DNA of 64,000 nt from a virus: IMG/VR virus record IMGVR_UViG_3300045988_171964. One strand, given 5' to 3'. The notes below the pieces were generated by a model, which saw nothing but the letters and a program-made list of their open reading frames with translations, was not told the origin of the DNA and made no database searches. Below are positions 13,052-64,000 of the stretch, one piece after another (positions within the stretch are counted from its first letter, which is position 1; each line of letters begins with the position of its first letter). The position numbers and the translations under genes are program-made.

Positions 13052-13060
13052 AAAAAGGTT

Positions 13061-19265: not shown

Positions 19266-19370
19266 CTCTTATTAATGTTTAATGTTTAATGTTAACCTGG
19301 TGGGGCATCGAAAACCGAAATTCGTGCTATTCGTGTCATTCGTGTTCAAACTCCCCGAACCCCCGAAACG

Positions 19371-20223
19371 CTATATGGTAAGGTCGATACCAAACTGACC
19401 TTCCAGGAACTTCTTGTAATCGGGCTTACCGAATAGCGGTCCGTTCACCTTATTCCACTCCTTATTATTAGAATAGAACACATCACGTGTGAACCATTCA
19501 TATACGCTATCGTAGCGTTTCAGCGCCGTGCAGTTAGGATGCGTATTTAAGTACTTCTGTCCGGCACGCAGATAAGCCTTCGCTATGCGGGGATGCTTCT
19601 GAAACTCGATAAGGCGCTTGCGTCTGGAAGCCAGAGGACAGCACATGCAGCCGAGTCTTCGAGTAACGTTGATTTGCCCCCCCCGTATCATAGTAGAGTG
19701 GAGCCAGCTTCAAGTCTCTATCAAGAATGAAATCCCTTACGTCTTCATCAGTCCACTCTAAGATAGGGTAAATCTGCTCCACATGGTTCTCTTCTTTCTT
19801 TGCACCAAAATATCGGCACTCGGTAGGCTCGTTATATCTTTCTTTTCTCGCTCTGCTTTCCGCTTTGCGCACACCGATAATGGTTTTATCGAGTACCTTA
19901 TACTCTTTCAGAGCCTCACAGCAGAAACGGGAGAAGCGAGAAGGAAATCCCTTCTTGGCGATAAGCTGAAAGAAATTCTCTTTAGGTCTGAGAATTTCCA
20001 CGCCCATCTCCTTCACGTGGGCGATAGTGCCAGGTGGGTCGATGGTGGTGTTCTTGTATATCGCCCTGTATCTGATACCGGCTTCCTTTGCAAGTTGAAG
20101 GATCACGTCGCTATCTTTGCCGCCCGAATAAGCCAGTTCTATCTCTCCATCGTACCTTTTCTGTACGCTTTGCAGGAGTCGGATAGACTGATCTATCTTT
20201 TTCTGTAATTGCTCGTTTATCAT
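19371..20223 (-). pseudogene. PAPS reductase / adenine-nucleotide-alpha-hydrolase-like gene, split by a +1/-2 frame break in a G8 tract
   Basis: The N-terminal ORF has the PP-loop-like AYSGGKDSDV. The C-terminal ORF has RRLGCMCCPL, as in the C-terminal Cys cluster of this family. The two frames meet in the C8 run at 19677-19684, and a 7-nt run would fuse them. Confidence 0.7.
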
Positions 20224-20254
20224 TTTGCGCCTTTTTAATTTCTTTATTTGCCCA

Positions 20255-20290
20255 CAAAATTACGAAATCGCCCCTAAATGATTGGGACAA
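20255..20290 (-). promoter_or_regulatory. phage promoter b' (minus strand)
   Basis: On the minus strand: TTGTCCC, 25 nt, TAATTTTG. Drives the PAPS-reductase/terminase operon. Confidence 0.55.
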
Positions 20291-20330
20291 CCCCCGAACC
20301 CCCTTATCTCGAAATAACACCCCTCTCGCC

Positions 20331-20357
20331 CCGTCCCCAGCGATTCCATCGCAGGTC
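20331..20357 (+). repeat. hairpin repeat H2
   Basis: CCGTCCCCAGCGATTCCATCGCAGGTC. Promoter b begins 12 nt downstream of its stem. Confidence 0.8.
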
Positions 20358-20367
20358 CCTCAATCCT

Positions 20368-20404
20368 TTTGTCCCCATCTCTCAATAAAAAACCGATACC
20401 TTTG
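20368..20404 (+). promoter_or_regulatory. phage promoter b
   Basis: TTTGTCCCC, 25-nt gap, TACCTTTG. 45 nt upstream of ATG 20449. Confidence 0.6.
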
Positions 20405-20448
20405 TATCGTATTAAAAAACATAGGATAACATTAAAAAGAAAAAAGAA

Positions 20449-21054
20449 ATGCAAAGTTTAATTCCAACCCTTACCAGGTTTCTTGCAGCCATCATCGGCT
20501 TGGTGTGGTGCACACTGGAACCATCCCTTAACTACATCGCCGTATGCTTCTTCGCCCTTGTCTGCGACTGCTACACGGCATGGCGCTGCAACTGTCGCAT
20601 CTATTCCCGCTATCGGGAGGCTATCAAGAAAGACCCTCGATGCAAAATCGACGGCAAACTGAAATCTAAGAAAATGGCAAAGATGGTGAAGGATTTCTCC
20701 GTCCTCATCCTTGCGATATTCTTGGCCACGATGGTAGATACCGTCATACTCGATTTCCAAAACCCTCTCCATCTTGCTAACTATCTCGCTGCCATCTATT
20801 GTGGCGTGCAACTCGTGAGCATCCTCGAAAACGAGAGTACCTGCAATGGTGCACCCTGGGCAAGAGTGATGCAGAAGATTGTGGCCGATAAAACCGAAAG
20901 GCACTTTAATGTAAAGCTGAAAGACTTGATGAAGGAAGCAACAGAAGAAGAGGGCAACAAGGAAGAGGCTACTCCGGAAGAGGATAAGAAGAAAGAAGAT
21001 GATAATGACGACTGGATTCCGCAGAAACCTGCAGACCCAGTAATGGGCATGTAA
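20449..21054 (+). CDS. holin-like membrane protein (Phage_holin_4-like)
   Basis: 3-4 hydrophobic helices. VQLVSILENES resembles the conserved SIlEN motif of that holin family. Acidic C-terminal tail. Confidence 0.5.
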   Translation: MQSLIPTLTRFLAAIIGLVWCTLEPSLNYIAVCFFALVCDCYTAWRCNCRIYSRYREAIKKDPRCKIDGKLKSKKMAKMVKDFSVLILAIFLATMVDTVILDFQNPLHLANYLAAIYCGVQLVSILENESTCNGAPWARVMQKIVADKTERHFNVKLKDLMKEATEEEGNKEEATPEEDKKKEDDNDDWIPQKPADPVMGM

Positions 21055-28533: not shown

Positions 28534-28595
28534 AAGAAGGTTTTGTTGATTATTAGTTGTTAGTTTTTAAGTTTATTAGTTATTTGTTTTTCGAG

Positions 28596-28628
28596 GCTGT
28601 TTCGCTGTGAAGCGAGGCAGCTTTTTTT
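28596..28628 (+). terminator. intrinsic terminator after the tape measure gene
   Basis: An 11-12 bp stem (GCTGTTTCGCT / AGCGAGGCAGC) with a GTGA tetraloop, followed by T7. Confidence 0.8.
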
Positions 28629-28629
28629 A

Positions 28630-28671
28630 GTGTTGAACGTTGAGTGTTAAATGTTGAATTAGGCTATCGCC
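28630..28671 (+). repeat. P3, left arm plus half spacer, fused to H3
   Basis: GTGTTGAACGTTGAGTGTTAAATGTTGAATTAGGCTATCGCC. Confidence 0.75.
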
Positions 28672-28680
28672 TTTGGGTCT

Positions 28681-28707
28681 CCGTTCCCAGCGAATTTTTC
28701 GCTGGTC
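28681..28707 (+). repeat. hairpin repeat H3 (variant loop)
   Basis: CCGTTCCCAGCGAATTTTTCGCTGGTC. Fused to the P3 half element. Confidence 0.8.
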
Positions 28708-28784
28708 CCATTTTGTAATAAAGCTAATATTTTTCCGTACCAACGTTAACCCTTTGATTTAGTGGGCATTTTGGTCTCAAAAGC

Positions 28785-28803
28785 ATATCTTGGTCTCATT
28801 TTT
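28785..28803. repeat. 19-nt inverted repeat, left copy
   Basis: ATATCTTGGTCTCATTTTT, a perfect reverse complement of 29054-29072. Confidence 0.9.
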
Positions 28804-29053
28804 CGTCGGTTTTACTACCTATATATAAAATTTTCCGTGTATTTTTTCTTTTCCCTAAAATCAAAATCCCCTAACCTCAAACTAGGAGTTAGTAGCATTA
28901 ACGGCTATGCCGTAAACTTCAGACAATAAGGTAGTTATGGGGATATAGGGGAGTGGCAGCTAGCGAGAGAAATGCGTGATTTTCTACATATATTCTACAT
29001 ATTTCTGAAATATTTTGTATCTCCTGCGTACATCTGTTTATAGAAAATTATAT

Positions 29054-29072
29054 AAAAATGAGACCAAGATAT
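29054..29072. repeat. 19-nt inverted repeat, right copy
   Basis: AAAAATGAGACCAAGATAT. Confidence 0.9.
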
Positions 29073-29205
29073 AGTAAGTTGCTGAAAAATAAGCAGATAG
29101 TAAAAAATCAGTGTGGGCTAGCAGTGGGACAATGGTGTGGCAGCAGGGGGACAATATACGCCGTTTTAGCAATTAGGGGACTTTAACATTTCTGCTAATA
29201 AAATT

Positions 29206-29261
29206 AAAATGAGACCAGAATCGGCAAAATGGGACCAGATTTCGCTTCCTGGTCTCATTTT
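29206..29261. repeat. 13-nt inverted repeat pair with an internal third copy
   Basis: AAAATGAGACCAG (29206-29218) and CTGGTCTCATTTT (29249-29261). The variant AAAATGGGACCAG lies at 29226-29238. Confidence 0.85.
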
Positions 29262-29283
29262 TGAAAAAACAACCTTTGCGTCT

Positions 29284-29310
29284 CCGTTCCCAGCGATTCC
29301 ATCGTTGGTT
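29284..29310 (+). repeat. hairpin repeat H4
   Basis: CCGTTCCCAGCGATTCCATCGTTGGTT, followed by a C8 tract at 29311-29318. Confidence 0.8.
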
Positions 29311-29401
29311 CCCCCCCCTCTCAAACCTATATTAAATGTTAAAAATATAACTTATTTCAAATATAATATAGCTTACCTATACTTTATTCGATTTATTTTT
29401 G

Positions 29402-29409
29402 TATCTTTG
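29402..29409 (+). promoter_or_regulatory. -7 box upstream of the primase-like gene
   Basis: TATCTTTG, 34 nt upstream of ATG 29444. Confidence 0.4.
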
Positions 29410-29443
29410 CAGCGAAAAATGAACAATATAATATATGTAAGGT

Positions 29444-30943: not shown

Positions 30944-31444
30944 ATGAAATTGATAACGATTATTGGTCCCTCTGGGGCTGGCAAGGACACGGTAGCAAAA
31001 ATGCTGTCTGATATTCTGGGATATGATGTGCTCTGTTCCTACACCACCCGTCCGATGCGGGAAGGTGAAGTTGACGGCAAGGAGCATCATTTTGTCAAGG
31101 AATGCAACGTTCCCAAAAGCGAAATGCTTGCTTATACCCGATACGGAAACTATGAGTATTGGACGGAGAAGAAACAGGTAGATGGTGCCGCCATTTACGT
31201 CATCGACGAGAAAGGACTGATGGAGCTGATGGAGCGCTGTCCGAAAGCCAAGATCATCACCGTCTATGTTTCGGCAAAGCCGGAAACTTTGAAGAAGCGT
31301 GGTATCTCTGAGGAACGTACCGACAGAGACCAGTATCGTGTTCAGATTGATTTCAACAGCTATGATTATGTGATACCAAACAACCGAACGATGCTTCATC
31401 TTTGGGACTACGTTGCGTTCGTAGCCAAGAAGATAAAAGAGTAG
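30944..31444 (+). CDS. guanylate kinase-like nucleoside monophosphate kinase
   Basis: P-loop GPSGAGKDT followed by SYTTRPMREGEVDGKEHHFV, the guanylate kinase signature TTRxxRxGExxGxxYxF. Confidence 0.75.
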   Translation: MKLITIIGPSGAGKDTVAKMLSDILGYDVLCSYTTRPMREGEVDGKEHHFVKECNVPKSEMLAYTRYGNYEYWTEKKQVDGAAIYVIDEKGLMELMERCPKAKIITVYVSAKPETLKKRGISEERTDRDQYRVQIDFNSYDYVIPNNRTMLHLWDYVAFVAKKIKE

Positions 31445-31679: not shown

Positions 31680-32576
31680 ATGAAAATGATAATTCCTGGT
31701 GTTGAGTGGTGGCCTCAGAAGACCGGCACTCAACAGGTTGCACGAGTAGGAAGAATCTGCTACAAGAGCAAAGCCAAACAGCCTGATGAGAAACTTTCTG
31801 AAGAAAAGAAAGAGGAGTTTCGGGAAGTACAGGCTGCAAAGTTGGTTAACCATTTCTGGAAGAGCGGTCATCGCTCTATGCTCCGTCATGGTACCATCTA
31901 TTTCTTCGTCAAGAATGACAACAAGCTGCCGAGGTCTCTCTGGTCTCTCCTCGTGGCTTCACCTTACATCAATTATGCGGTGAAGGATAAGAAGGTATGG
32001 ATCAGCAGCAACATGCAGTTCCTTGCCGAGCATGACGAAATCCTCGACATCCTCGACTCATACGATGTGAAGGAAGATGAGTTCATCGAGAAGGCGCTGA
32101 AGTATGATTGCAAAAAGGCTCTCTATCTCCTCCGCATGACCATGGTTGTTACCACGCAAATCAGTACCAGCCGTGAGCTGAACCGCACATCGCCTAATAG
32201 CATCAGCGAACAGAGCACTCGCTATGTGAACCTGGAGAAGAAAGGTGGCGTACAGATTGCCCGTCCGCACTGGTTGCATGAAGGAACCCGCTGGCAGAAG
32301 TTCCTCTATCTTGCCGGATGCAAGATAGCTGACTGGCTCTATCGCCGTTTGCTGAAATCGGGCATGAAGCCGCAGGATGCCCGCGGCATTCTTCCTCTCG
32401 ATACCTATACGGTGGTAGCTTATACCTATACCCTCAAGGAGTGGAAACATATCCTGGACCTCCGCTTCCATGAAAGTACCGGCAAGGCGCATCCTAACGC
32501 CAAGGAAATAGGCTATCTGATTCATCGCATCATTACCGAGAGAATGATGGAATATGATAAGGACTTCGAGATTTAA
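31680..32576 (+). CDS. thyX: ThyX-like flavin-dependent thymidylate synthase (divergent motif)
   Basis: SGHRSMLRHGTIYF and SRELNRTSPNSISEQSTRYV resemble the ThyX blocks, but the canonical RHR is NRT here. Confidence 0.55.
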   Translation: MKMIIPGVEWWPQKTGTQQVARVGRICYKSKAKQPDEKLSEEKKEEFREVQAAKLVNHFWKSGHRSMLRHGTIYFFVKNDNKLPRSLWSLLVASPYINYAVKDKKVWISSNMQFLAEHDEILDILDSYDVKEDEFIEKALKYDCKKALYLLRMTMVVTTQISTSRELNRTSPNSISEQSTRYVNLEKKGGVQIARPHWLHEGTRWQKFLYLAGCKIADWLYRRLLKSGMKPQDARGILPLDTYTVVAYTYTLKEWKHILDLRFHESTGKAHPNAKEIGYLIHRIITERMMEYDKDFEI

Positions 32577-33644: not shown

Positions 33645-33738
33645 TTTTGAGTGTTGAATGTTGAGTTACCTCACGGACTCAAGGGCGCTAGCCTAATTCA
33701 ACATTCAACACTCAACATTCATCAAACCATTCAACATT
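33645..33738 (-). repeat. P4 (complete, spacer inverted relative to P1/P6/P8)
   Basis: The arms flank the spacer ACCTCACGGACTCAAGGGCGCTAGCCTAA, which is the reverse complement of the P6 spacer. Confidence 0.85.
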
Positions 33739-39446: not shown

Positions 39447-40352
39447 ATGGAACTAAGACATTTACGTTCGTTTGCGTATGTGGCAGAGACGCTTTCTTTC
39501 AGCATCGCCGCCACCCGATGCTTTGTCACCCAATCCGCCATCAGTCAGCACATCAAGGCTCTGGAGGATGAACTGGGATGCAAGCTACTGATACGCACAT
39601 CGCACAGCATCATGCTCACCGAGAACGGAGAGGCACTTCTGCCACGTGCCAAGGAAATACTGAAGTTGGCGGAAGACTGCAAGGAGCATATCAATGCACT
39701 CAACAACTGCATGACCGGAGAACTGCGCATCGGTGTAGGTTCCTTTATCGCACCCTATATCCGTGTGGCTGCACTTATATTCATGGAGCGATACCCTAAC
39801 GTAAGAGTGAATGCCGAATTTTCCAAGGCAACGAGCCTGAACCGCCTGTTGCGAGACCACATGCTGGATCTCGCTTTTACGATGAACGAAGCCTATACCA
39901 ACGAGGGCATCGATAGCCAGCCTTGCATCCCATTCAGTCTTTGTGCCATCATGAGAAACACACACCCTCTTGCCAGGAAAGATAAGGTAACATACTATGA
40001 CCTGCTGAAGCACGGCATCATCATGCCCGATGTAGGCGAACGTGTTTTCAACACTTTTCAGCAATATTTGCAGAACGATCTCACCAAATTAAGCGTAAAG
40101 TGTATCGTCAGTGACCCAGACGAAGACCTTGCCATCATAGAAGATACTCACCTGGTTACTTTTATGCCGAAGCTGTATCTGAAGAACCACCCTACCCTTA
40201 TAGCTCGTCCTATCCATGGCATAGGAGAAGAACTGATGAGCAATGCCCACTGTATGAAGGATGTACCTATGAAGCGTTCTGCACAACTCTTCCTCGACAT
40301 TATCAGGGACGAAGCCATCCCGTATATCAAGGCTTTGGAAGAAACTATGTAG
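39447..40352 (+). CDS. LysR-family transcriptional regulator
   Basis: N-terminal wHTH LRHLRSFAYVAETLSFSIAATRCFVTQSAISQHIKALEDELGCKLLIRT, followed by a roughly 200-aa substrate-binding-sized domain. Confidence 0.9.
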   Translation: MELRHLRSFAYVAETLSFSIAATRCFVTQSAISQHIKALEDELGCKLLIRTSHSIMLTENGEALLPRAKEILKLAEDCKEHINALNNCMTGELRIGVGSFIAPYIRVAALIFMERYPNVRVNAEFSKATSLNRLLRDHMLDLAFTMNEAYTNEGIDSQPCIPFSLCAIMRNTHPLARKDKVTYYDLLKHGIIMPDVGERVFNTFQQYLQNDLTKLSVKCIVSDPDEDLAIIEDTHLVTFMPKLYLKNHPTLIARPIHGIGEELMSNAHCMKDVPMKRSAQLFLDIIRDEAIPYIKALEETM

Positions 40353-43895: not shown

Positions 43896-43990
43896 ATTGA
43901 ATGTTGAATGTTGAGTGTTGAATGTTGATTTAGGCTAGCGCCCTTGAGTCCGTGAGGCAACTCAACATTCAACATTCAACAATCAACATT
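43896..43990 (+). repeat. P6 (complete)
   Basis: The arms flank the spacer TTTAGGCTAGCGCCCTTGAGTCCGTGAGGCAA. Confidence 0.9.
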
Positions 43991-48424: not shown

Positions 48425-48451
48425 CCGTTCCCAGCGATTCTATCGCTGGTC
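48425..48451 (+). repeat. hairpin repeat H8
   Basis: 27-mer identical to H10 and H11. Lies after the MTase array and 12 nt upstream of promoter e. Confidence 0.85.
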
Positions 48452-52865: not shown

Positions 52866-52892
52866 CCGTTCCCAGCGATTTCATCGCTGGGT
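52866..52892 (+). repeat. hairpin repeat H9
   Basis: CCGTTCCCAGCGATTTCATCGCTGGGT, lying between gene 51739..52851 and promoter f. Confidence 0.8.
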
Positions 52893-52899: not shown

Positions 52900-52936
52900 T
52901 ATGTCCCCCCTAATAAGAAAAAACCTCCTATCTTTG
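52900..52936 (+). promoter_or_regulatory. phage promoter f
   Basis: TATGTCCCC (variant), 25-nt gap, TATCTTTG. Upstream of 52963. Confidence 0.5.
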
Positions 52937-52962
52937 CCCTATAAACAAAGAAGAAAAGCAAT

Positions 52963-53616
52963 ATGGCAAAGAATAAAGAAACCCCAGAACAGCGCACGCA
53001 GCGTTTCAAGACCCTTTGCGTCCATATCCTCGCCCAGAGCGGCAACTGCCAGGAATCGCAGCATGCCTTCAAAAGCACGCAGAGCATTCCCGATATGTGC
53101 GAGGCATGGCGCAAATACTGGCACGGCTTAATCACCGAGGTACCGCAGCAGGTAATCGATGCTTTCAAGGCGGTATATCCGGAATTTAAGGCTGATATAA
53201 ACCAGGGTGGTATCTTCTATAACGAGGATTCGCCCACCGGTACCGTCCTCGTAGGCGATACAGACGAGGAAATCCACCTCTACTCCTCCCGAAAGATATA
53301 CGTCTTAGGCAAGGCACACGTTATCCTCCATAATGCGGCTACCGCCCTCGTGATGAATGAAGGCTGCAAAGTAGAGCTATTGGATGGCAGCAAGGCAACC
53401 ATCAAGGCAGGTTACGGCATCGCCCGAAACTATGCCCACCTGGTAACTGGCAGCGAGGCAGAAAGCTACGACCAGAGTGTAGTCTTCATCACCGATGGCA
53501 CTCTTCACGACCATGGGCATCAGAAAATCAATGCTTTTGGTACGGCAACCATTGATACCTTCACCGATCGCCTCATAGATTTATACGATAACGCAAAAAT
53601 AGAAATCAGAAAATGA
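52963..53616 (+). CDS. hypothetical structural protein
   Basis: 217 aa. ATGA overlap with the next gene. Confidence 0.45.
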   Translation: MAKNKETPEQRTQRFKTLCVHILAQSGNCQESQHAFKSTQSIPDMCEAWRKYWHGLITEVPQQVIDAFKAVYPEFKADINQGGIFYNEDSPTGTVLVGDTDEEIHLYSSRKIYVLGKAHVILHNAATALVMNEGCKVELLDGSKATIKAGYGIARNYAHLVTGSEAESYDQSVVFITDGTLHDHGHQKINAFGTATIDTFTDRLIDLYDNAKIEIRK

Positions 53617-56462
53617 ACTCACATCTTACGATATTGATAAACGACAAGCCGGTAGCTTTGCCCGATGATTTCTCAATAGATATTGAGGATCAGAACCCAG
53701 TGTTCAACGATACGGAAATGTTCTCCTATCCTTTCTCTATTCCGCTGGACGGCAACCGATGGCTGGTAAAGAACATCGAAGATATTCATGCCGCCATGAA
53801 AGCCGTGAATATGGAGCACCTGCCTACTCGCATTCATGCCGACGGACTGCCATTCCGAAGCGGTACCTTGGTCATGCAGGACGATGAGGAAATAACCGAT
53901 TCACTCTCTATGAACATCGATGCCAGCACGCAGAGTTTCAGCGAGCTAATCAGCGACCTGCAATGCCGTGATATTCCTGTAAAGGACCAGATTATCATCG
54001 GTGAGAAAATCGGTAATGTGAGGGTGGATATAGAGAGCGACCCTGTGGTAAAGGTAAATGTTTTTGTTACCGGAGGTAAGCATAAGGATGATAAGACGGA
54101 AAACCACGAAATCAGAGCCGCCCACGTAAGCGTAAGCAAGGTTCTCGAACCGCAAGCACTCGGTTTCTCTTATCCTGCCAGTTGTAAGGAATATACAAGC
54201 ACATCTACCCAGCATTATAAAGGTGATGCGTATAAGCTCTCAGAGCGTTCCTATCCGCAGAACCATACAGTAAATGAGCCTACCATCGCAAATAACGGTA
54301 ACTATATAAACACCGCTGCTGCCTATGGCGAAACCGATGGCGCGGGCAGGGCAGCCGCTTACTGCAACGCCCGTATCTGTTACAAACATCATGGTCTTGA
54401 TGATGACAAGAAGACGGCGAGCGGTGTTATTAGTACGAAAGACTGTACCTGGACGAACGAAGACCTTTATCCTTATTGGGTATTGGATGCCAAACGTCCG
54501 CAGTCGGGTATCTGCTTCTATGTGCTTTATTTCCTCGATTGCCTCTTTGACTATCTGGGTGTAACTTTCGATAAGCGAGCCTTAATGCAGATAGAGGATT
54601 TGAAGCATCTCTGCTTCTTCACGACCGTATGCAGCTACGATACCGTCAGCTACCAGTATGACGAGGACGATCCTACAGGCGCAAAACAACCTAATCTTCA
54701 CCCTCATCATGGTACTTATTATCGAAAAAACGATGCCGACGTAATCGCCAAGAAGAAGAAAGCTGGTGAAATCAAGACGGGTTATTTCCAAAGCCAGGAG
54801 CATATCAATTCATGGCTGGAAAGCCGTGGATGCGGTGGAAAGATTAATATCGTGAAAGCTGAGAATAAGGATGTGCAGGAATTGACTCTTCGCACACCAG
54901 AAGGTACAACCGAGCATGTGCAGGTAGGCGAGGTTCGCGATGATGGCGGCAAGGTTACTAGTATCAGCATCGAGGCAAAAATCAGCAAGTTCAAGGTACA
55001 GGCAAACGTGCTTAATATGGTAGCCAACAGCGGCAATTTCCCTGATGAGAGCGTAAGCACCGTAATCTCATCTCTTGAAAGTGCCTTTGGTATCAAGTTC
55101 TCGTATGATTACGAGCAGAAGAAGGTAACAGCTTATCTTACCCGTGATGTGTTGCGCAAGAGCGGTAATGAGGCAAGAACGTTTCATGCCAACATCCACT
55201 CCATGGTCCCGATGACCGAGAAGATTACAGGTGTGCGTATGCGCTATTCTGCAGAGAGTGATGCAAAAGATCAGCGTCAGAATGTACTCGATAGCCGTAG
55301 AAACAAGAACATGGGTTATTCTACCGATTATGATTACATCGATTACCCTGCGCCAGATAGTGGCGATAACTCCACCGTCTATAATCTCGACTACATCGAT
55401 TTCTTCCATAATCTGAGTAGTGGAGATAAGCATTGTTATATCGACCGCAAGACTGGCAACGCTTATCGCGTAAAGGTGAATAGTGATGCACCCACGACAG
55501 CCGACTTGAAACCGGTACTCTTTGAGGTAGGTCAGTTTAAGGGTGTAGAATATGGAGATTGCAGCGATGAGAACGAAGATTTCATTCACGATATTTCGGT
55601 AGATTTTACTCCTGTTCCGTTCAATGATGTGAACTATTTCAAGGAGATAGAAGCTGCCTATGGCTCTCACGAGGCAATCGACTCCTACAACGGCAAGAAA
55701 TATGGTGTAACCATCGCCGATAGTCAGCCTATCCTCTGTGCTTATGTAGATGAGGATATGGAGCATGAGTTTGTGGAGCAGATTATCAATCAGACTATCT
55801 CTACTGCTTTCTGTGATTTCTACATGCAGCAGACACTATCACTCGTAGAAAGCTACGACCCGTCGAGCACCGATGATGGCAATTCTCCGTTGCAGGATGA
55901 TTCACGCTGGGGATATGCGGTTGCTTTGATGCGAGGTGGTGGTAGCGATGCTACCCGCCAGTCTTACGATTATAATTACGACCACTTCGGAACGTCCAAA
56001 TGGCGTACCGTATCTGGTAAGTATGCCCTGGCATGTGATTCACTGGATATGATGGGCAACGTGTTTGATTACAACGGTGTGCAGGAAGGTGTAGGCGATG
56101 GTGAACGTTTCTCGCTCAAGATACGAGCTTTCAAGGAACCATCGTGGTTAAGTGATCCGAAGTATCAAAATGTAGTACTTTGTGATAAAGATGAGGTAGA
56201 TAAAAATGGTAAGGTGGTTAAGAAGGTTCGCTCCCGTGGCCTCTTTGATACCTTCATTCTCCCATACGCCTATTTCCTCTTAAATAGAAAGAAGTTTATG
56301 GTAAGATGTACCACCACCGTAGCGCAGGTGGCCGATATACCTAACCACTGGCAGGAATGGTGGAATATAGGCGGTATGAAATGCCTTATCGACAAGGTAA
56401 ATACTACCATCGATGCCAAGACGGGCATGGGCGAAGTAGAGTTAACAGTGTACGCCCTCTAA
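53613..56462 (+). CDS. large virion/tail-associated protein
   Basis: 949 aa in the tail-fibre-proximal module. No motif recognised. Confidence 0.5.
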   Translation: MNSHLTILINDKPVALPDDFSIDIEDQNPVFNDTEMFSYPFSIPLDGNRWLVKNIEDIHAAMKAVNMEHLPTRIHADGLPFRSGTLVMQDDEEITDSLSMNIDASTQSFSELISDLQCRDIPVKDQIIIGEKIGNVRVDIESDPVVKVNVFVTGGKHKDDKTENHEIRAAHVSVSKVLEPQALGFSYPASCKEYTSTSTQHYKGDAYKLSERSYPQNHTVNEPTIANNGNYINTAAAYGETDGAGRAAAYCNARICYKHHGLDDDKKTASGVISTKDCTWTNEDLYPYWVLDAKRPQSGICFYVLYFLDCLFDYLGVTFDKRALMQIEDLKHLCFFTTVCSYDTVSYQYDEDDPTGAKQPNLHPHHGTYYRKNDADVIAKKKKAGEIKTGYFQSQEHINSWLESRGCGGKINIVKAENKDVQELTLRTPEGTTEHVQVGEVRDDGGKVTSISIEAKISKFKVQANVLNMVANSGNFPDESVSTVISSLESAFGIKFSYDYEQKKVTAYLTRDVLRKSGNEARTFHANIHSMVPMTEKITGVRMRYSAESDAKDQRQNVLDSRRNKNMGYSTDYDYIDYPAPDSGDNSTVYNLDYIDFFHNLSSGDKHCYIDRKTGNAYRVKVNSDAPTTADLKPVLFEVGQFKGVEYGDCSDENEDFIHDISVDFTPVPFNDVNYFKEIEAAYGSHEAIDSYNGKKYGVTIADSQPILCAYVDEDMEHEFVEQIINQTISTAFCDFYMQQTLSLVESYDPSSTDDGNSPLQDDSRWGYAVALMRGGGSDATRQSYDYNYDHFGTSKWRTVSGKYALACDSLDMMGNVFDYNGVQEGVGDGERFSLKIRAFKEPSWLSDPKYQNVVLCDKDEVDKNGKVVKKVRSRGLFDTFILPYAYFLLNRKKFMVRCTTTVAQVADIPNHWQEWWNIGGMKCLIDKVNTTIDAKTGMGEVELTVYAL

Positions 56463-56475
56463 CTCCCTCTCGCCC

Positions 56476-56502
56476 CCGTTCCCAGCGATTCTATCGCTGG
56501 TC
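56476..56502 (+). repeat. hairpin repeat H10
   Basis: CCGTTCCCAGCGATTCTATCGCTGGTC, immediately upstream of the KAS gene. Confidence 0.85.
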
Positions 56503-56534
56503 TCACAATAAGAAACATAAAAAATGAAATAAAA

Positions 56535-57743
56535 ATGGATAAAAAGATATTGATTACCGGAACCGGTATTCATTCTGCCCTAGGCAGAAGTACAAGAGAA
56601 GTAGCCATGAACCTCTATAAGGGTAAATGCGGATTGCATCACGACGAATGCCGCGATAAATACAATTCCGATTTATGTGGCAATGTACCTAGTTGGAAAG
56701 CAGAGTGTCTGGATATACTTACCCACGCGCAATACGAATGTATGCCTGCACATGGTTTTTATGTGCTCGATGCGGTATTCGAGGCGCTGAAGAAAGCAAA
56801 GGTCAGTAAGGAGTTTCTTGAAAACCATAATGTTTCACTTATCGTAAGTAACGACTCAGAATGTTATGAAAGCAAAGTTGTGGTCTCTCACGTAAAAAAG
56901 AACATCTCTAATCGTAGACTTCCGGTAACAACCCTATTCCGTTCACTTAATTCCACTATCAGCATGAACCTGGCCACTATCCTCGGCATTCATGGTTTAT
57001 CGCTCACCGTTAGCGCAGCCTGTGCAGGAGGTGGCCACGCCATCGGACTAGCAAAGATGTTGCTCGATAGCAAACAGACTGAAATGGTAATTGTGATTGG
57101 TGCGCAGGAATGCGGATCTCAATATTGCATGGAAGCTTTCGATGCCCTCGGTGTCTTCTCACCTGATAAAGTACAGCCGTTTGGTAAAGGCAGAAACGGA
57201 TTGGCACCATCTGGTGGCGCAGCCTGCATCATCCTCGAACCATCGGATAGTCTTCGATTGAAAGAAGAGAAGGTGCATTCATTCGCTTCCCTTTCCGGCT
57301 ATGGCTTCTCTACCAATGGAAAAGCTATCACTACCCCTGATAGTTATCAGGAAGAAGTATCTATGCTGAATGCTATCGAGAATGCAGGTTTGGATGAAGG
57401 CATGATAGACGTAGTACTTGCTCATGCTACCGGCACACCGATGGGCGATGAAGCCGAGGCAAAGGCAATAGAGAGGATCTTCCCTATCTGTCCGAACGTA
57501 GTAGCTACAAAAGGTATGACGGGTCACGAGTGTTGGATGGCAGGTGTATCGCAAGCCATACAAGCTACCATCATGCTTACATACGGTCGTCTGTTCCATG
57601 CAGCCACTACCGAGGAGAACGCCTTCCCGAAATTGAACCTGGTGATGCGCCCTAAGTATTATTCCCCTCATCATATCCTCTGTAATGCCTTTGGCTTTGG
57701 AGGTACAAACTCCTCATTCGTTATTTCGAATGTTGAATGTTGA
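56535..57743 (+). CDS. beta-ketoacyl-ACP synthase (KAS I/II, FabB/FabF-like)
   Basis: Cys-His-His triad contexts: SAACAGGGHAIG, HATGTPMGDEAE, KGMTGHECWMAG. 402 aa. The stop lies inside the left arm of P7. Confidence 0.8.
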   Translation: MDKKILITGTGIHSALGRSTREVAMNLYKGKCGLHHDECRDKYNSDLCGNVPSWKAECLDILTHAQYECMPAHGFYVLDAVFEALKKAKVSKEFLENHNVSLIVSNDSECYESKVVVSHVKKNISNRRLPVTTLFRSLNSTISMNLATILGIHGLSLTVSAACAGGGHAIGLAKMLLDSKQTEMVIVIGAQECGSQYCMEAFDALGVFSPDKVQPFGKGRNGLAPSGGAACIILEPSDSLRLKEEKVHSFASLSGYGFSTNGKAITTPDSYQEEVSMLNAIENAGLDEGMIDVVLAHATGTPMGDEAEAKAIERIFPICPNVVATKGMTGHECWMAGVSQAIQATIMLTYGRLFHAATTEENAFPKLNLVMRPKYYSPHHILCNAFGFGGTNSSFVISNVEC

Positions 57744-57764
57744 GTGTTGATTTAGGCTAGTGCC
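57728..57764 (+). repeat. P7 left arm plus half spacer
   Basis: GAATGTTGAATGTTGAGTGTTGATTTAGGCTAGTGCC, containing the KAS stop codon. Confidence 0.8.
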
Positions 57765-57773
57765 TTCGCGCCT

Positions 57774-57800
57774 CCGTTCCCAGCGATTCTATCGCTGGTC
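57774..57800 (+). repeat. hairpin repeat H11
   Basis: Identical 27-mer, immediately downstream of the KAS gene. Confidence 0.85.
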
Positions 57801-57826
57801 AGTTACTAATAAAAAGCAAAAAAAAT

Positions 57827-58099
57827 ATGAAAAAAGAAGAAATAACCTCTCGCATTATCACCATCGTGAACAGCCTGAAAACATCATGGGTAAAGCACGA
57901 AGTAACACCTGCATCTAACCTTCGTGACGAGGTAGAACTGGAGTCTCTTGATTTCCTCGATATGATCCAGCAGGTGGAAATGATGTTCCATATCAAGATT
58001 ACCCCGGAAGAGGCGAAAGATTGCAAGCTCGTTTCCGATGTAATTGCGCTCGCCGAGCGCAAAGTCAACATTCAACATTCAACACTCAACACTAAATAA
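57827..58099 (+). CDS. acyl carrier protein
   Basis: About 80 residues of helical ACP pattern. LESLDFLDMIQQVEMMFHIKITPEEA carries the Ser of the DSL phosphopantetheine site. The last 10 codons are encoded by the right arm of P7. Confidence 0.7.
   Translation: MKKEEITSRIITIVNSLKTSWVKHEVTPASNLRDEVELESLDFLDMIQQVEMMFHIKITPEEAKDCKLVSDVIALAERKVNIQHSTLNTK
58065..58092 (+). repeat. P7 right arm, displaced about 300 nt from its left arm
   Basis: TCAACATTCAACATTCAACACTCAACAC, encoding the ACP C-terminus. Confidence 0.8.
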
Positions 58100-58101
58100 C
58101 T

Positions 58102-59157
58102 ATGGCACAGAAAATCAATCTCACATCTGGTTCTGTCTTTGCCGGAAACCCGATAACCTTTACCATCACCCCCTCCGTGGCTACGAATCCATCCTTCCAT
58201 CGGGTTATCGTAGAAGTGAACTTTGATGATGGTACGGGCAGTTACGAAACCAATAAGCTCACTATTCCTGTTACCACCGAGAGAAGTGATGTATCGCTCG
58301 ATATATCCTCTGCTCTCCGTATTACGCTGGATAGCTACAAGTATACTGCCATTCCATCCACCTACCCCGTGGTAAGCTGGTACATCAAAGCCTACGATGA
58401 GTATATGGATAACAACGGAGAGGTGCATACCGGTGTAGGCGAGGTCTATTATCCAGCTGATGGCTCGAAGAATAAAGGTGAAACCAACCTTCGCTGCATA
58501 GCCGGAGCCTTCAGCGATATAGAACGATTGAAATCGGGCGTAACGAAGGCTGTCACCCTTCTCTCCTGCAAACCGACTGATACCCCCGAAATAGCCGTTG
58601 TAGGCGCGAGCTTTGTTTATCCTGTCTCCTATAGCGCAGGGCAGAACTTAGCTACCAGCAGCTCACTGACCGCCCCTGTATCTAGGGAGCAGGAAATCAC
58701 GAAGGAAGGTGCGCAGAGCATTCAGGGGCACCCTATCTATGCTCTACCGTCCTCTGAAGCTGAAGACCGTACCACCTTCCGTTTCATTAACCGCTTCGGT
58801 TGTCTAGAGAGTATCAGCGTGCCGAAATCCTACTCTCAGAAGATGAATGTCGAGAGCACGCAATATACGAAAGCTATTCAGGAAACCTTCAATCAATTCT
58901 CCCGTGCCGCTATCAAGAAGCAGAATAATCGTGAAAGCTGGCTCTATCAGAGCGACCCGCTTACCAAGGCATGGCAGCAGTGGTATCTCCATGAGTTCCT
59001 GATGTCTGAGCACGTATGGCTGAAAGCCAATGATGCCTGGCTTCCTTGCACCATCAATCTCGAAGATGAAATAACCATCAAGGACGAAACCAACAAAAAT
59101 ATGTATTCCGTTTCCTTTACTGCAAAGCTAGGTATCAACGGCAACCCGCTTATTTAG
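58102..59157 (+). CDS. hypothetical tail-module protein
   Basis: 351 aa. Starts 2 nt after the ACP stop. Confidence 0.5.
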   Translation: MAQKINLTSGSVFAGNPITFTITPSVATNPSFHRVIVEVNFDDGTGSYETNKLTIPVTTERSDVSLDISSALRITLDSYKYTAIPSTYPVVSWYIKAYDEYMDNNGEVHTGVGEVYYPADGSKNKGETNLRCIAGAFSDIERLKSGVTKAVTLLSCKPTDTPEIAVVGASFVYPVSYSAGQNLATSSSLTAPVSREQEITKEGAQSIQGHPIYALPSSEAEDRTTFRFINRFGCLESISVPKSYSQKMNVESTQYTKAIQETFNQFSRAAIKKQNNRESWLYQSDPLTKAWQQWYLHEFLMSEHVWLKANDAWLPCTINLEDEITIKDETNKNMYSVSFTAKLGINGNPLI

Positions 59158-59285
59158 TGTTGAATGCTTTTATTAATGTTGAGTGTTGAATGTTGAATGT
59201 TGATTTAGGCTAGCGCCGTTGAGTCCGTTAGGCAATTCAACATTCAACATTCAACACTCAACATTTAAAAATCCCATTCAACATT
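59157..59285 (+). repeat. P8 (complete, extended arms)
   Basis: The arms flank the spacer TTTAGGCTAGCGCCGTTGAGTCCGTTAGGCAA. An extra arm unit lies at 59272-59285. Confidence 0.9.
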
Positions 59286-59286
59286 T

Positions 59287-59323
59287 TTTGTCCCCACTAA
59301 AAAAGCGAAAACCTTTATCTTTG
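59287..59323 (+). promoter_or_regulatory. phage promoter g
   Basis: TTTGTCCCC, 25-nt gap, TATCTTTG. Upstream of the tail fibre gene. Confidence 0.6.
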
Positions 59324-59355
59324 CCTTATAAATAAATAAAAATCCAAACAAAAAA

Positions 59356-62300
59356 ATGGCAACAGAAGCAAAAAATACAAATTATTGGATCTCGAGCACT
59401 GCGCTCTCTATCCAGCTAAATTCGATGGGAGAGCCTGACTACATCCAGTGTAGTGTAGTATCGGGCGCTTCGGTCCTCTGCTATATGAGCGATGTGCCAG
59501 GCTTGGGCTATGATGCCGGTCACAACTATCAGCGCTGGACGCTTGCTGCCTATCCTTCTATCTTCCCCGATAGCAAACGGAAGTATGTGTATATCGCCAT
59601 TCCACGACAGTCTACCACCGATAATAACCAGGCTACCGTCGTGTTCCCTGGTGAGAAGATAGATATATATGGTAAGACTATTCCATCTTCCGGAACTGAA
59701 GGTGTGCAGATAGGTAACGAGGCTTATTACTATATCTTTACAGGCGGTATCATATCTGCTGTAAAGACCGATGCCGACAATACCAGAAAGCGAGAATGGG
59801 AACAGCATTTTGATTGCGGTAAACTGGCTACCGACGAGGCGATAGCCAGCGGCGGTGAAGGCGAATGGTGGCGGTATAATTCCGTATCAGATACCATCAC
59901 CTTCCTCAAGGAGATTCTGAAGGCAAACTTTAATGAATTGTCGGCAAAGGTAGCTCGCGTAACCAGTCTTTTCCTGGGTGGGCATGAACTGAGGGGCGTT
60001 GCTGACAGTAACGGCACCCTGGAAATAAGCGATGATACCGTAGTTACCCCTCAGTATCTCGGTCAGTTTGGGGTGAAGCATTTCCTTGCCAAGGATAAGG
60101 ATGATACGGCCCATGGCACTATCACTTGGGAGAAGGTTCAGAAGTTCTTGCAGGGGTTGCATGTCGGTAACCGCAACAATGAGAACGGAGGTTCCTGGAC
60201 TCCCGATGCAGAAGGTCGTTCACACCTCATAACAGATTACTTGGAGGTAAGAATGAAGGCTATCTTCGAGGAGCTGGTCATCAATAAAACATCCACCATC
60301 GGTGGTAAGGAGATAATCTCTCCTGCTGGCGGTGTGGTGGCTCATAAGGTAGAAGAGGTTACTGTGACATATAATAATGTGTCACAGAAGGCTTATCGTT
60401 GCTACTTCCTCGCAGAGCAGGAAGGCGATTCTGTAGATAATGATTTCGCTGTTAACGATCAGGTGCGCTCGGAATCATTCAATGTACGCAAGGGCACTTA
60501 CCACAAAGTTGGCAATCACTTTTACTGGCGATTGGTAATCGGTCGTGATGAAGACCCTGTAGAGCTGGAAGGAAAGAAATATCATTATATCGACCTCTCT
60601 GATACCGATTGCGCTACGGCAAGCGATGTTCCTGCTAAAGGTGATGTGCTCAACCAGTGCGGTAATAGAACCGATGTAGAACGTCAGAACTGCCTTATCT
60701 TCTCGGCGGTAGATACCTATTCGCCATCCATCAGCCTCTATCACGGCATCAATAGCTATTCCTTTGCCAATAGGGAGTATGTGGAATATGGTGTGAATAA
60801 GCAGACTAACAGGGCTTTCTTCCATGTCTACGGAGATATGTACTTCGGAGACCGACCTACTAGTGCCAATAACTACGAGGGTGATTCCTATGTCAAGTTT
60901 GATAGCGAGACGAAGAAAGTAACCATCAAGGGAGACTTGGATATTAAGTCCACCTATGATGGCAAAACCTTGGATAAGTACATCACCGAGAAGAGCTTGG
61001 ATAAGAATGCCGTTGAGACCATTATCAATAAATCGCAGACGATTATCGACCTTCAAAACCAGATAGACGGAGCTATTGAGACTTGGTTCTATGACGGCGT
61101 TCCTACTTTGAAGAATGCTCCAGCCATCAGTTGGAAGACCGACAATGATAAGAAAACCCACTTGGGAGACCTCTACTATGACAACAAGACGGGCAAGGCA
61201 TACCGCTTTGCCAAGGATGGCTCTACCTATGAGTGGATTATCATCACAGATACGGAGCTGACCAAGGCACTCAAAGATTCAAGCCAAGCACTCAAAGATG
61301 CAGCCGCTGCGGATAAGAAGGCTAATGGAGCGCAAGCTACCGCCAACACCAAGAGACGCATCTTCGGCTCTCAGCCAGTTCCACCATACGATGTGAACGA
61401 TATGTGGGTGAACGCAACCTATCCGAACGATGGTAGCACTTACAAGAACGAAATCTTGAAGTGTTCCACCGCCAAGGCAGAAGGCGAAAAGTTCGATATT
61501 GCCGATTGGAAATTGGCTAGCAAGTATACCGATGACACGAAGGCAGAGGAAGCCAAGAAAGCTGCTGAGAAGGCGCAAGAAGAGATTAAGACGACACAGA
61601 GCAACTTGAACGCCCTCGGAACGACTGTTACCGAAAACAAAAAGACGTTCGACAGCTACGTCAAAGATGGCTACCTAGAGCCTTCTGAGATTGCTGCAAT
61701 GTCGCAGGATTCCAAGCGACTTGAAGATGCTTTCGCAGCTGCCGAGAAGTCGTACAATGAAGTGAAGGGAGCAGAGGTGTTAAAGAGTACAAAAGAACTC
61801 ACCGACCTTAATACTGCTTTCACTACTCTCTCTACTGCCAAGACGGAACTCGTTACGTATCTCTCAGATATATCTACAAATTACAATAAGGCTGATACTA
61901 CCGGCAAGGCTGCCATCGTATCTGCTGTCGGAACGAAGTTTACCAACTTCCAAAGCGCATATTCTGCCTTCTATGACAAGCTGGGTTTGGCAAACGCATA
62001 TATCACTAGCAAGATATATGGTGACTTGAAGCAGAATATCACAGACCTCGCAGGTTACAAGTATCTCAAGGATGCGCTCGGTCAGACTACATATGTTGAC
62101 GGTGGTCTTGTAATGACAACGCTCCTTGCGCTGAGAGACGGAGACGGAAACGTTCAGAGCGGTATCAACGGAGCAATAGACCCGAATAGAGGAAAGAAGA
62201 GTATCGCAACATGGTGGGGCGGTCAGATGGTGGATAAGGACTATAATAGCGGAAATCTTACCCCTGCAACCTCCCTCATCCGCTTCGATGGCTCGGGTTA

Positions 62301-64000
62301 TCTTGCCAATGGTGCTATCTGGTGGGATGTGAGCGGAAAGGTTCACGCAGACCCGACATCGTTTATCATCAGTGAGAAGAATCTTGGCGCATACCTCACC
62401 TTCTTCGAGCCGACTTGGAAGGAAGGAAGTGCAGGAACGAGCGTTGCTGACCTTGTGTCTTTGAAGCCAAACGCTCCATTCTCCAAACTTGGCGTATCGG
62501 GCGATGCTACATTCGAAGGCGCAATCTCCTTCCATGGCATTAAGCTCACGTATGATTCCAAAAACAAGGCTATCAAAATTGATGGCAATCTCTATACCAC
62601 AGGTGGTATCACGGCATACGGAGCAGGAGCATCTACCACGGGTGGTGGCGGCTTGAACGGCAGTGTGAAGAGTTATTCAAATGCCTTGAAGCTTACATCA
62701 GAATCGCTGTCTGAGATAGCTTCTGCCTACTCCATCAAGGCTCTTGATTCTCGTATCTCCAGCTTGGAAGGTGGTAGTGCTACTGCTATTTCTGTCAGCG
62801 GTAGCGGTAATGCGGTTACGTCTGTCACCAAGGATGGTACTACTATCAGCGTAGTTAAAGGTAGTACGTTCTTAACTAGTCATCAGTCACTTGATGGTTA
62901 CGTTAATGCAATATCTGTAAGTGGAAGTGGGAATGCTATCACGTCTGTATCTAAAAGCGGAAAGGGTATTACATTTACTAAAGGTGCTACATTTTTAACT
63001 TCTCACCAAAGTCTTGCTAACTATTATACCAAAAGTAGTGTAGATTCACTTCTTAGTGGTAAGTCGGCAACTAGTCATACACATAGTGTTAAGATTAACG
63101 GTGTTACTAAAACTATTGCAGCTACTGGTGGAACTGCTGTAGATTTAGGAACTTATCTTACTAGTCATCAATCTCTTAATGGGTATGCTACGCAATCTTG
63201 GGTTAAAAGTCAAGGTTATCTTACTACCCATCAAGATGTTAGTATTCTTAACATGGCTAATGATAGATATTATTATAAAGATAATTATGGTATAAATATG
63301 CGAAATTCTGATATTATTGGAGTTAATAGTATTTATACTAAAGATTTATCTGATGACCCTTCAGAAGCTATTCTATTTTGTAGAAGTAACGGTAACTATG
63401 ATGGTATTCGTGCAGCAAATGGAGTATTATATTTTAGCAATAATGTAGTTAGAACTACTAGAAAATATGATGCTGAATATGAAGTTTATCATAAAGGTAA
63501 TCTTACTAAACTTAGTCAACTTACTAATGACAAGAACTTTGTTACTGGTTCTGTAAGTGGTCAAACTATTACTATCAATGGTGTTTCTACTACTTGGCAA
63601 AATACTTGGAGAGGAATTACTGATAGTTATAGTGGAACTTCTACTGGTACTAGTCTTAGTCAAAAAGGTGCAAATAGTTTATATAATGCTTTGCATAATG
63701 GATATGCTAGCAGCGCAGGTAATGCAGATACTGTAGATGGTTATCATGCTAATGGTAGCAATGTTGCACCCTATGGGCATATACCTACTATAGAAAGCGA
63801 TGGAGTAATGGAAGTAGGTAAATATATTGACTTTCATAATGATAATAGCGGTAAACATGATTTTTCTACTAGATTACTAACTACTGGTAATTATGGAAAT
63901 TCAGTTAATCTTCCATCAGTAGGTGGTACATTAGCGTTAACTTCTGACAATGTAGCTTCTGCAACAAAACTTGCGGCAGCAAGAACGATATGGGGTCAAA
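59356..64000 (+). CDS. tail fibre / receptor-binding protein, 3' end beyond window
   Basis: The frame stays open from ATG 59356 to the window end; 62581-64000 was checked codon by codon. It has coiled-coil stretches, repeated FLTSHQSL blocks, an SHTHS His-x-His motif and NADTVDGYHA, all typical of fibre tips. Confidence 0.75.
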   Translation, partial: MATEAKNTNYWISSTALSIQLNSMGEPDYIQCSVVSGASVLCYMSDVPGLGYDAGHNYQRWTLAAYPSIFPDSKRKYVYIAIPRQSTTDNNQATVVFPGEKIDIYGKTIPSSGTEGVQIGNEAYYYIFTGGIISAVKTDADNTRKREWEQHFDCGKLATDEAIASGGEGEWWRYNSVSDTITFLKEILKANFNELSAKVARVTSLFLGGHELRGVADSNGTLEISDDTVVTPQYLGQFGVKHFLAKDKDDTAHGTITWEKVQKFLQGLHVGNRNNENGGSWTPDAEGRSHLITDYLEVRMKAIFEELVINKTSTIGGKEIISPAGGVVAHKVEEVTVTYNNVSQKAYRCYFLAEQEGDSVDNDFAVNDQVRSESFNVRKGTYHKVGNHFYWRLVIGRDEDPVELEGKKYHYIDLSDTDCATASDVPAKGDVLNQCGNRTDVERQNCLIFSAVDTYSPSISLYHGINSYSFANREYVEYGVNKQTNRAFFHVYGDMYFGDRPTSANNYEGDSYVKFDSETKKVTIKGDLDIKSTYDGKTLDKYITEKSLDKNAVETIINKSQTIIDLQNQIDGAIETWFYDGVPTLKNAPAISWKTDNDKKTHLGDLYYDNKTGKAYRFAKDGSTYEWIIITDTELTKALKDSSQALKDAAAADKKANGAQATANTKRRIFGSQPVPPYDVNDMWVNATYPNDGSTYKNEILKCSTAKAEGEKFDIADWKLASKYTDDTKAEEAKKAAEKAQEEIKTTQSNLNALGTTVTENKKTFDSYVKDGYLEPSEIAAMSQDSKRLEDAFAAAEKSYNEVKGAEVLKSTKELTDLNTAFTTLSTAKTELVTYLSDISTNYNKADTTGKAAIVSAVGTKFTNFQSAYSAFYDKLGLANAYITSKIYGDLKQNITDLAGYKYLKDALGQTTYVDGGLVMTTLLALRDGDGNVQSGINGAIDPNRGKKSIATWWGGQMVDKDYNSGNLTPATSLIRFDGSGYLANGAIWWDVSGKVHADPTSFIISEKNLGAYLTFFEPTWKEGSAGTSVADLVSLKPNAPFSKLGVSGDATFEGAISFHGIKLTYDSKNKAIKIDGNLYTTGGITAYGAGASTTGGGGLNGSVKSYSNALKLTSESLSEIASAYSIKALDSRISSLEGGSATAISVSGSGNAVTSVTKDGTTISVVKGSTFLTSHQSLDGYVNAISVSGSGNAITSVSKSGKGITFTKGATFLTSHQSLANYYTKSSVDSLLSGKSATSHTHSVKINGVTKTIAATGGTAVDLGTYLTSHQSLNGYATQSWVKSQGYLTTHQDVSILNMANDRYYYKDNYGINMRNSDIIGVNSIYTKDLSDDPSEAILFCRSNGNYDGIRAANGVLYFSNNVVRTTRKYDAEYEVYHKGNLTKLSQLTNDKNFVTGSVSGQTITINGVSTTWQNTWRGITDSYSGTSTGTSLSQKGANSLYNALHNGYASSAGNADTVDGYHANGSNVAPYGHIPTIESDGVMEVGKYIDFHNDNSGKHDFSTRLLTTGNYGNSVNLPSVGGTLALTSDNVASATKLAAARTIWGQ

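Follow-up and report, generated by a model that had tools for sequence, protein, structure and literature searches.

We analysed a 64-kb stretch of DNA (hereafter the window; IMG/VR record IMGVR_UViG_3300045988_171964) from an uncultivated tailed phage of human gut metagenomes, and found that it carries a cassette of two adjacent genes encoding a beta-ketoacyl-acyl carrier protein synthase (KAS, a ketosynthase, KS) and an acyl carrier protein (ACP). To judge from its sequence, the KAS is a catalytically competent condensing enzyme of the elongating, homodimer type. The pair is an old, selected accessory insertion, of the moron or auxiliary-metabolic kind, between two conserved neighbours. Since a lone KS with a private ACP is under selection in several phage lineages and at varied genomic positions, it is best explained as a host-directed auxiliary module. 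We consider the chances evenly balanced that this module is host-dependent and NodFE-like, in the sense that it would build a separate acyl chain with the help of host enzymes. The two genes are as follows.

56535..57743, + strand: KAS, beta-ketoacyl-ACP synthase of the KAS I/II type, 402 aa; member of a divergent 'TGHECWM' clade; catalytic Cys, His, Lys and His intact
57827..58099, + strand: ACP, 90 aa; phosphopantetheine-site Ser in LESLDF; PF00550, PHROG 5934

The KAS product exceeded the gathering score of two Pfam models, PF00109 over residues 3-237 (E 1.4e-25) and PF02801 over residues 251-353 (E 1.5e-18), and its top match among solved structures was 4xox_A, a FabB-like 3-oxoacyl-ACP synthase (E 2.7e-40, residues 3-398). 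Among the NCBIfam models, FabB came first with 168.6 bits against a cut-off of 630, followed by FabF with 167.3 bits against one of 493.75. With scores of about a quarter to a third of these equivalog cut-offs, the enzyme is of the KAS I/II type and is an orthologue of neither FabB nor FabF. PHROGs v4 held no family matching the KS. We aligned 55 distinct KAS variants from related contigs to E. coli FabB and showed that Cys163, His298, Thr300, Thr302, Asp306, Glu309, Lys328 and His333 (FabB numbering) are invariant in all of them, as is the loop Gly391-Phe392-Gly393-Gly394 with its Phe gatekeeper. Hence, the Cys-His-His centre that a first-pass annotation had read from this open reading frame (ORF) is intact and includes the Lys, and the alignment reveals no displaced catalytic residue. 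Pairwise dN/dS values of 0.04-0.18 indicate purifying selection. The ACP product matched PF00550 at 25 bits (cut-off 20.8) and the PHROG 5934 family 'acyl carrier protein' (E 1.8e-8); all NCBIfam ACP models scored it under their cut-offs. Its Ser in LESLDF, already proposed as the phosphopantetheine site, falls on Ser36 of E. coli AcpP in the alignment, and 34 of 34 phage ACPs retain it. In these proteins helix II opens with the conserved Ser, in a (D/E)S(L/I)D motif with ES(L/I)D replacing DSL, and the dN/dS of the ACP is 0.11-0.24.

We established the accessory nature of the cassette by comparing related phages. The order p217-p949-KAS-ACP-p351 (genes of 217, 949 and 351 aa flanking the pair) is constant in ∼55 IMG/VR contigs of ∼100-kb human-gut phages, with a KS identity of 58-99%, and recurs, flanked on either side by phage genes, in independent assemblies from ENA and Logan. 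In a sister clade of 7 contigs (p949 ∼46% and p351 ∼51% identical), by contrast, the cassette is cleanly absent and ∼25 nt separate the p949 stop codon from the p351 start codon. Six of these contigs were recovered a second time, and they have no KS or ACP beside the primase gene either, the alternative site between the tape-measure protein (TMP) and primase genes. The constant order and the clean absence in the sister clade argue for an accessory insertion rather than an assembly chimera. The cargo insertion between conserved neighbours suggested at first pass is thereby borne out, together with the presence/absence polymorphism that was to be looked for among related phages. The divergence of the KS parallels that of the neighbouring genes and the GC content of the cassette (0.43-0.46) is that of the genome (0.45), implying that the insertion is old. 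An artefact, be it host contamination or an assembly chimera, is refuted by the conserved order in these ∼55 contigs and in many independent assemblies, with a composition equal to that of the rest of the genome; no point in its favour was found, and we regard it as scarcely credible.

Relatives of the KS were collected by an exhaustive search of 1.8 billion representatives. Stand-alone KS relatives are 35-44% identical and have the motifs LIVSNDS, AACAGGGHA, PSGGAA and TGHECWM in common. The nearest (39-44%) belong to other lone KS+ACP pairs on phage-like contigs, in different phage lineages and in four settings: ACP-KS with the tape-measure gene on one side and primase/ThyX on the other, in ∼100-kb phages with the same replication genes as the window phage; KR-KS-ACP, with a ketoreductase (KR), beside a glucosaminidase on phage contig L198; ACP-KS next to the gene for a protein exceeding 1500 aa; and KS-ACP beside deoxynucleoside monophosphate (dNMP) kinase, exonuclease and terminase on contigs of 160-175 kb. 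In neighbour-joining trees, the window KS clade has 100% support and joins other ∼100-kb phage KSs at 84.5% bootstrap, and the FabB clade (100% bootstrap) leaves out all phage KSs. The phylogeny called for in the first-pass annotation thus places the KAS with phage KSs and outside FabB. The top cellular relatives (34-40%) are all from Bacteroidota, with the KS directly followed by an ACP. The Bacteroides fragilis locus L141 encodes KS, ACP, two small ORFs, MMPL, a flavin adenine dinucleotide (FAD) oxidoreductase, FabG and LolA, and the order at the Flavobacterium locus L116 is aromatic amino-acid lyase, KR, KS, ACP, LpxL-type acyltransferase and a KAS III-like gene. These loci are flexirubin/aryl-polyene-like clusters. 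The phage pair resembles them in being the nearest in sequence, in three of the above motifs (TGHECWM, AACAGGGHA and PSGGAA), in the succession of KS and dedicated ACP, and in the KR-KS-ACP arrangement seen both in Flavobacterium and on L198.

In contrast to these clusters, the phage pair stands alone. We found no phosphopantetheinyl transferase (PPTase), FabD, ketoreductase, dehydratase (DH), enoyl reductase or thioesterase in ∼96 of the ∼104 kb of the genome, a scope made up of a Pfam census of the 63 window ORFs, precomputed annotations for the 10 kb upstream and 29 ORFs in ∼20 kb further downstream; the genome length was estimated from the positions of the window genes within one ENA contig. 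The lyase, KR, DH, acyltransferase, MMPL and LolA genes of the Bacteroidota clusters were likewise not found in this part. The absence from the window of any acyltransferase, reductase, dehydratase or PPTase, remarked on at first pass, is therefore confirmed and extended, the sole acyltransferase candidate being a 121-aa GNAT protein encoded at 12603-12968, 44 kb from the cassette. There is no chain-length-factor partner, the KAS being the single KS-family gene in the window and the further ∼30 kb examined. As no PPTase gene was found in the ∼96 kb, phosphopantetheinylation of the ACP would need a host enzyme.

These data suggest the following scheme for a host-dependent module. A host PPTase would turn the phage ACP into its holo form and host FabD would load it with malonate. 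The phage KS would accept an acyl primer on its Cys and catalyse the decarboxylating condensation with malonyl-ACP, giving a beta-ketoacyl chain on the phage ACP, which would then be processed by host type II enzymes, either FabG and FabZ or their counterparts in a flexirubin/aryl-polyene-like pathway. Malonyl-CoA would in this way be diverted to a phage-controlled acyl pool, which the orthogonal carrier would hold separate from bulk lipid synthesis; the decision to build a chain of its own would lie with the phage KS and ACP, all other steps being borrowed. A beta-hydroxy or polyenoyl product is a speculation, hinted at by the relatives in polyene-pigment clusters and by the KR-bearing phage variant.

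The closest known parallel is the rhizobial NodF/NodE pair, in which NodE is the KS and which borrows the housekeeping fatty-acid synthesis (FAS) for the unusual, polyunsaturated acyl chain of Nod factors. NodF is a specialised ACP for polyunsaturated acyl chains (PMC9542644). Both are two-gene modules in which a KAS I/II-type synthase lies beside its own ACP and the other steps are encoded elsewhere: the phage KS and ACP genes are adjacent, without other FAS genes in the part of the genome examined, and the ACP-then-KS order also exists in related ∼100-kb phages. The likeness is one of gene arrangement. The phage module differs in residing on a virus, so that the borrowed enzymes belong to another organism, and in having no NodA-like transferase.

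Several observations weigh against a host-dependent module of this kind. The FabB residues K63, R66 and R124, which dock ACP, are not conserved in the phage KS, making its pairing with host components uncertain. Recognition by host AcpS of an ACP with ES(L/I)D in place of DSL is an assumption. No off-loading enzyme for the acyl-ACP is encoded in the ∼96 kb. The node joining the phage KSs to those of the Bacteroidota clusters has a weak support of 14%, and ApeO and ApeR of E. coli CFT073 are 21% identical to the phage KS and branch outside the clade of phage and Bacteroidota enzymes, so that the link to polyene chemistry comes from the gene neighbourhoods of the relatives. We accordingly withdrew the label 'aryl-polyene type' that had been given to the KS. 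A more specific proposal, which we put forward tentatively and hold to be well short of probable, is that a phage-specific KS+ACP lineage spread over several ∼100-kb and jumbo groups of Bacteroidota-type gut phages would make a dedicated acyl or polyenoyl product through host FAS, for envelope remodelling or, in the clade of the window phage, for modification of a co-expressed tail component.

Other explanations start from the same features. The pair might boost host FAS as an extra FabB/FabF and AcpP, raising the supply of membrane phospholipids. The family-level similarity to FabB/FabF speaks for this, with the same fold, the same Cys-His-His-Lys set, Phe gatekeeper and GFGG loop and thus all catalytic residues present, as does the lack of specialised tailoring genes. 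We nevertheless consider it unlikely: the scores lie far under both equivalog cut-offs, the KS falls outside the FabB clade, whose support is full, and shares 24-28% identity with FabF and FabB of E. coli, its docking residues differ as described above, it always travels with its own divergent ES(L/I)D-type ACP rather than with AcpP, and its cellular relatives sit in secondary-lipid clusters and not in fab operons. The first-pass annotation had listed acylation of a virion or tail protein among the candidate functions; the acyl-ACP would then donate its chain to a tail or tail-tip protein and so aid the interaction with the membrane or cell surface. What stands of this proposal is the position of the cassette, which lies between genes next to the tail fibre, probably in their transcription unit, and is kept throughout the clade. 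Protein acylation that relies on a dedicated ACP has a precedent in IacP, associated with the type III secretion system of SPI-1 (Salmonella's pathogenicity island 1) and reported (PMC5279801) to be used for acylation of the Salmonella translocon. As an analogy only, both ACPs are encoded within a locus for a host-penetrating nanomachine; IacP differs in having no cognate KS, and the phage has no identifiable acyltransferase or acylated target. The nearest KS+ACP pairs of other phages are outside tail modules, beside primase/ThyX, dNMP kinase/terminase or a lysis gene, and there is no transferase in or near the module, the 121-aa GNAT being far off, which together weaken a tail-specific function. 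The sister clade, moreover, has p949 and p351 and manages without the pair. We therefore judge tail lipidation to be quite unlikely.

A KS with a dedicated ACP is also the core of type II polyketide synthases. A KS homodimer and the ACP could by iterative malonyl condensation yield a short polyketide (pyrone- or resorcinol-like) acting as a signal or toxin, in line with the relatives in pigment clusters and the KR added in one phage lineage. For such self-contained synthesis, the examined ∼96 kb lack a chain-length factor, a cyclase, a thioesterase and a partner resembling KAS III/DarB, and the NCBIfam polyketide models give bit scores no better than FabB/FabF, which makes it improbable. Bacterial ACPs bind many partners, and the absence of encoded downstream enzymes would suit a non-catalytic decoy that shuts off the host or counters its defences by binding or sequestering host FAS or proteins that interact with ACP. 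This is very improbable, given that the catalytic residues and the Ser are strictly conserved down to 58% identity under strong purifying selection and that PADLOC returned no match.

Phage ACPs (as a PHROG family) and specialised bacterial KS/ACP pairs are already known. The window ACP matches PHROG 5934, classed under 'moron, auxiliary metabolic gene and host takeover', but the obligatory pairing with a KS is absent from the description of that family. To our knowledge, the phage lipid auxiliary genes known so far are few and mostly single enzymes. The condensing enzyme is the step that sets flux and chain length. We found no description of a recurrent phage-specific KS+ACP lineage in the literature searched, and the lineage appears to be undescribed. 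A condensing enzyme with its own carrier, in a common gut phage and in several other lineages, suggests that an acyl product is made in Bacteroidota-type hosts under the direction of the virus and has been selected for. If the host-dependent reading is true, the shared phage lineage would represent NodFE-type specialised lipid synthesis in a viral form. The product, if identified, could reveal a new route by which gut phages modify the envelope of the host, oxidative-stress lipids or the virions themselves, and the compact orthogonal KS/ACP pair could then serve engineering.

The borders of the cassette carry two types of repeat, termed H and P.

56476..56502, + strand: one copy of the H repeat (11 in the window), with hairpin CCAGCGAT-TCT-ATCGCTGG; missing here in most relatives
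57728..57753, + strand: P-type heptad palindrome, left arm; supplies the final codons of KAS and its stop codon
57774..57800, + strand: H repeat copy between KAS and ACP; in 7 of 56 related loci examined
58062..58096, + strand: P-type palindrome, right arm; encodes the C-terminal tail of the ACP
470, 20331, 28681, 29284, 30581, 38373, 44287, 48425, 52866, 56476 and 57774, + strand: positions of the H copies
12960-13060, 33650-33730, 43899-43990 and 59167-59266: P hairpins, with half copies near 13953, 28650 and 35178

The H element CCGTTCCCAGCGATTCTATCGCTGGTC forms an 8-bp hairpin and has 11 copies in the window against ∼0 expected, all intergenic and on the + strand; copies are often preceded by a CCCTCTCGCC motif, and one is followed by a T-run. 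P is a genome-wide family of ∼100-nt intergenic hairpins with ∼29-bp stems of tandem heptads (GAATGTTGA/GTGTTGA in the window) and energies of -42 to -53 kcal/mol. At the ACP-p351 junction, relatives L001/L003 and L021/L028/L036 carry other heptad families (TTTATAG/CTATAAA, AAAGGTA/TACCTTT), at least one of which, TTTATAG/CTATAAA, has the same GGCTAGCGCC loop core. P-type elements are gained, lost and swapped between strains, and could be terminators or mobile palindromes; an Rfam search of 56300-59400 gave only spurious microRNA-hairpin matches to the P element.

These repeats had been taken at first pass as signs of a repeat-mediated insertion. The identical 27-nt H copies at 56476 and 57774 do bracket the KAS gene. 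They are not specific to the cassette, however: a third identical copy lies at 48425, and H occurs 11 times. The ACP gene does lie within a split P element in this strain, the arms at 57728-57753 and 58062-58087 being 88% complementary and predicted to pair around it (z = -5.4), but this is a strain-level feature laid over an existing operon. It also holds that both gene ends are encoded by repeat arms, since the KAS and ACP stop codons are both within P arms; the ACP tail NIQHSTLNTK that the right arm encodes is strain-variable. Among relatives, the KAS-ACP gap is only a few nucleotides ('TAGTTATG') with no repeat in ∼30 of 56, including all the most divergent clades. The P-arm and H spacer of the window type is found in 7 of the 56 only, some others having a different heptad family, and an H copy lies upstream of KAS in just 1 of 15 sampled relatives. 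The 3' end of the ACP gene has at least four alternative junction types, and the right P arm occurs in genomes that lack the left one. As the border elements are strain-variable and absent from most cassette carriers, the repeats arrived in or around an existing cassette. The idea that they mediated the insertion fails on these grounds, and conspicuous flanking repeats are, more generally, no evidence for how a cassette arrived.

In contigs L001-L040, KS alleles and their flanks occur in shuffled combinations, a p949 of 98% identity going with a KAS of 86-90%. In L022, for example, p949 is 98%, KAS 90% and ACP 98% identical, and in L011 p949 is 75% and KAS 96% identical. Read from these allele identities, the shuffling indicates frequent gene-sized homologous exchange among co-circulating strains, and the variable intergenic elements may mark recombination boundaries.

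We analysed the transcriptional context of the cassette from the following features.

52871..52891, + strand: H-type hairpin and T-run, terminator-like; upstream end of the putative transcription unit
52923..52945, + strand: promoter-like motif ACCTCCTATCTTTGCCCTATAAA, containing the Bacteroidota-type TAnnTTTG; putative function
52963..53616, + strand: p217; always upstream of p949 in relatives
53613..56462, + strand: p949, presumed virion or tail gene; left neighbour of the cassette, adjoining p351 in cassette-less relatives
58102..59157, + strand: p351; right neighbour of the cassette
59167..59266, + strand: full-length P hairpin with a stem of ∼29 bp, -52.6 kcal/mol; the transcription unit probably has its 3' limit here
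59310..59332, + strand: second copy of the promoter-like motif, ahead of the tail-fibre gene
59356..64000, + strand: giant tail or fibre gene, 5' part; 2105 aa in an identical relative, strongly strain-variable

The 23-nt promoter-like motif ACCTnnTATCTTTGCCnTATAAA has 2 copies in the 64 kb, at 52923 before p217, directly after the H hairpin with its T-run, and at 59310 before the fibre gene, directly after the complete P hairpin. No Bacteroidota-type -7 motif lies ahead of KAS, ACP or p351, in agreement with the first-pass statement that the pair has no promoter of its own. A sigma-70 promoter and terminator scan showed no enrichment, the sigma-70 model being ill-suited to a Bacteroidota host. 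The placement of the motif and the flanking hairpins fit a single unit, and p217-p949-KAS-ACP-p351 are probably transcribed as one, the KAS and ACP genes together with tail genes. The tail-module setting itself was supported in part. The giant gene downstream has a match to the 'tail protein' family phrog_21973 at E 8e-40. In p949 and p351, on the other hand, no family was found by Pfam, PHROG (including divergent orthologues) or PDB sequence searches, and with both genes unannotated the setting is no more than plausible. The AlphaFold2 model of p949 (pLDDT 27.7) was unusable; the homologue search returned near-identical sequences only, in an alignment of 11 sequences at 93-98% identity.

The phage is very common in the human gut. 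The window encodes a 2072-aa tape-measure protein, an S49 protease, a GH108 lysin, a holin, methylases, ThyX and a BT4734-type primase, and a 3'-phosphoadenosine-5'-phosphosulfate (PAPS) reductase and two radical S-adenosylmethionine (SAM) proteins are also among the phage genes, as are the following.

39447-40352: full LysR-type regulator (HTH_1 + LysR_substrate)
12603-12968: 121-aa GNAT
31680-32576: ThyX
30944-31444: guanylate kinase

INPHARED nucleotide and protein searches for a cultured relative returned nothing beyond short fragments or, in contaminated records, fab genes that stem from the host. A placement in the Flandersviridae was dropped: the family is defined by PolA, which is not seen here, and the paper on it makes no mention of a KS or ACP. 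A non-coding stretch of ∼900 nt (28534-29443) separates the tape-measure and primase genes and has 5 of the 10 TGGTCTCA/TGAGACCA octamers of the window, for which ∼1.8 are expected in total; it may be an origin or a regulatory region. Related ∼100-kb phages carry their ACP-KS pair at the matching position, and a search of this TMP-primase spacer for ACP or KS remnants, as a trace of translocation, found none.

Just past the window end, the fibre gene, which is hypervariable, adjoins a conserved 101-aa ORF (20714-21019 in relative L003). At least 230 IMG/VR stretches match this ORF, the best 80 of them with 98-100% identity and from many otherwise different contigs; it may encode a fibre chaperone or be a piece of a horizontally exchanged fibre cassette. 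The downstream genome walk used this gene; matches to a 425-aa gene led to unrelated phages. Finally, L110, a relative with an identical KAS and a different fibre region, has a reverse-transcriptase gene (RVT_1, weak match; 19062-20543) ∼8 kb downstream of the cassette, which may belong to a diversity-generating retroelement.

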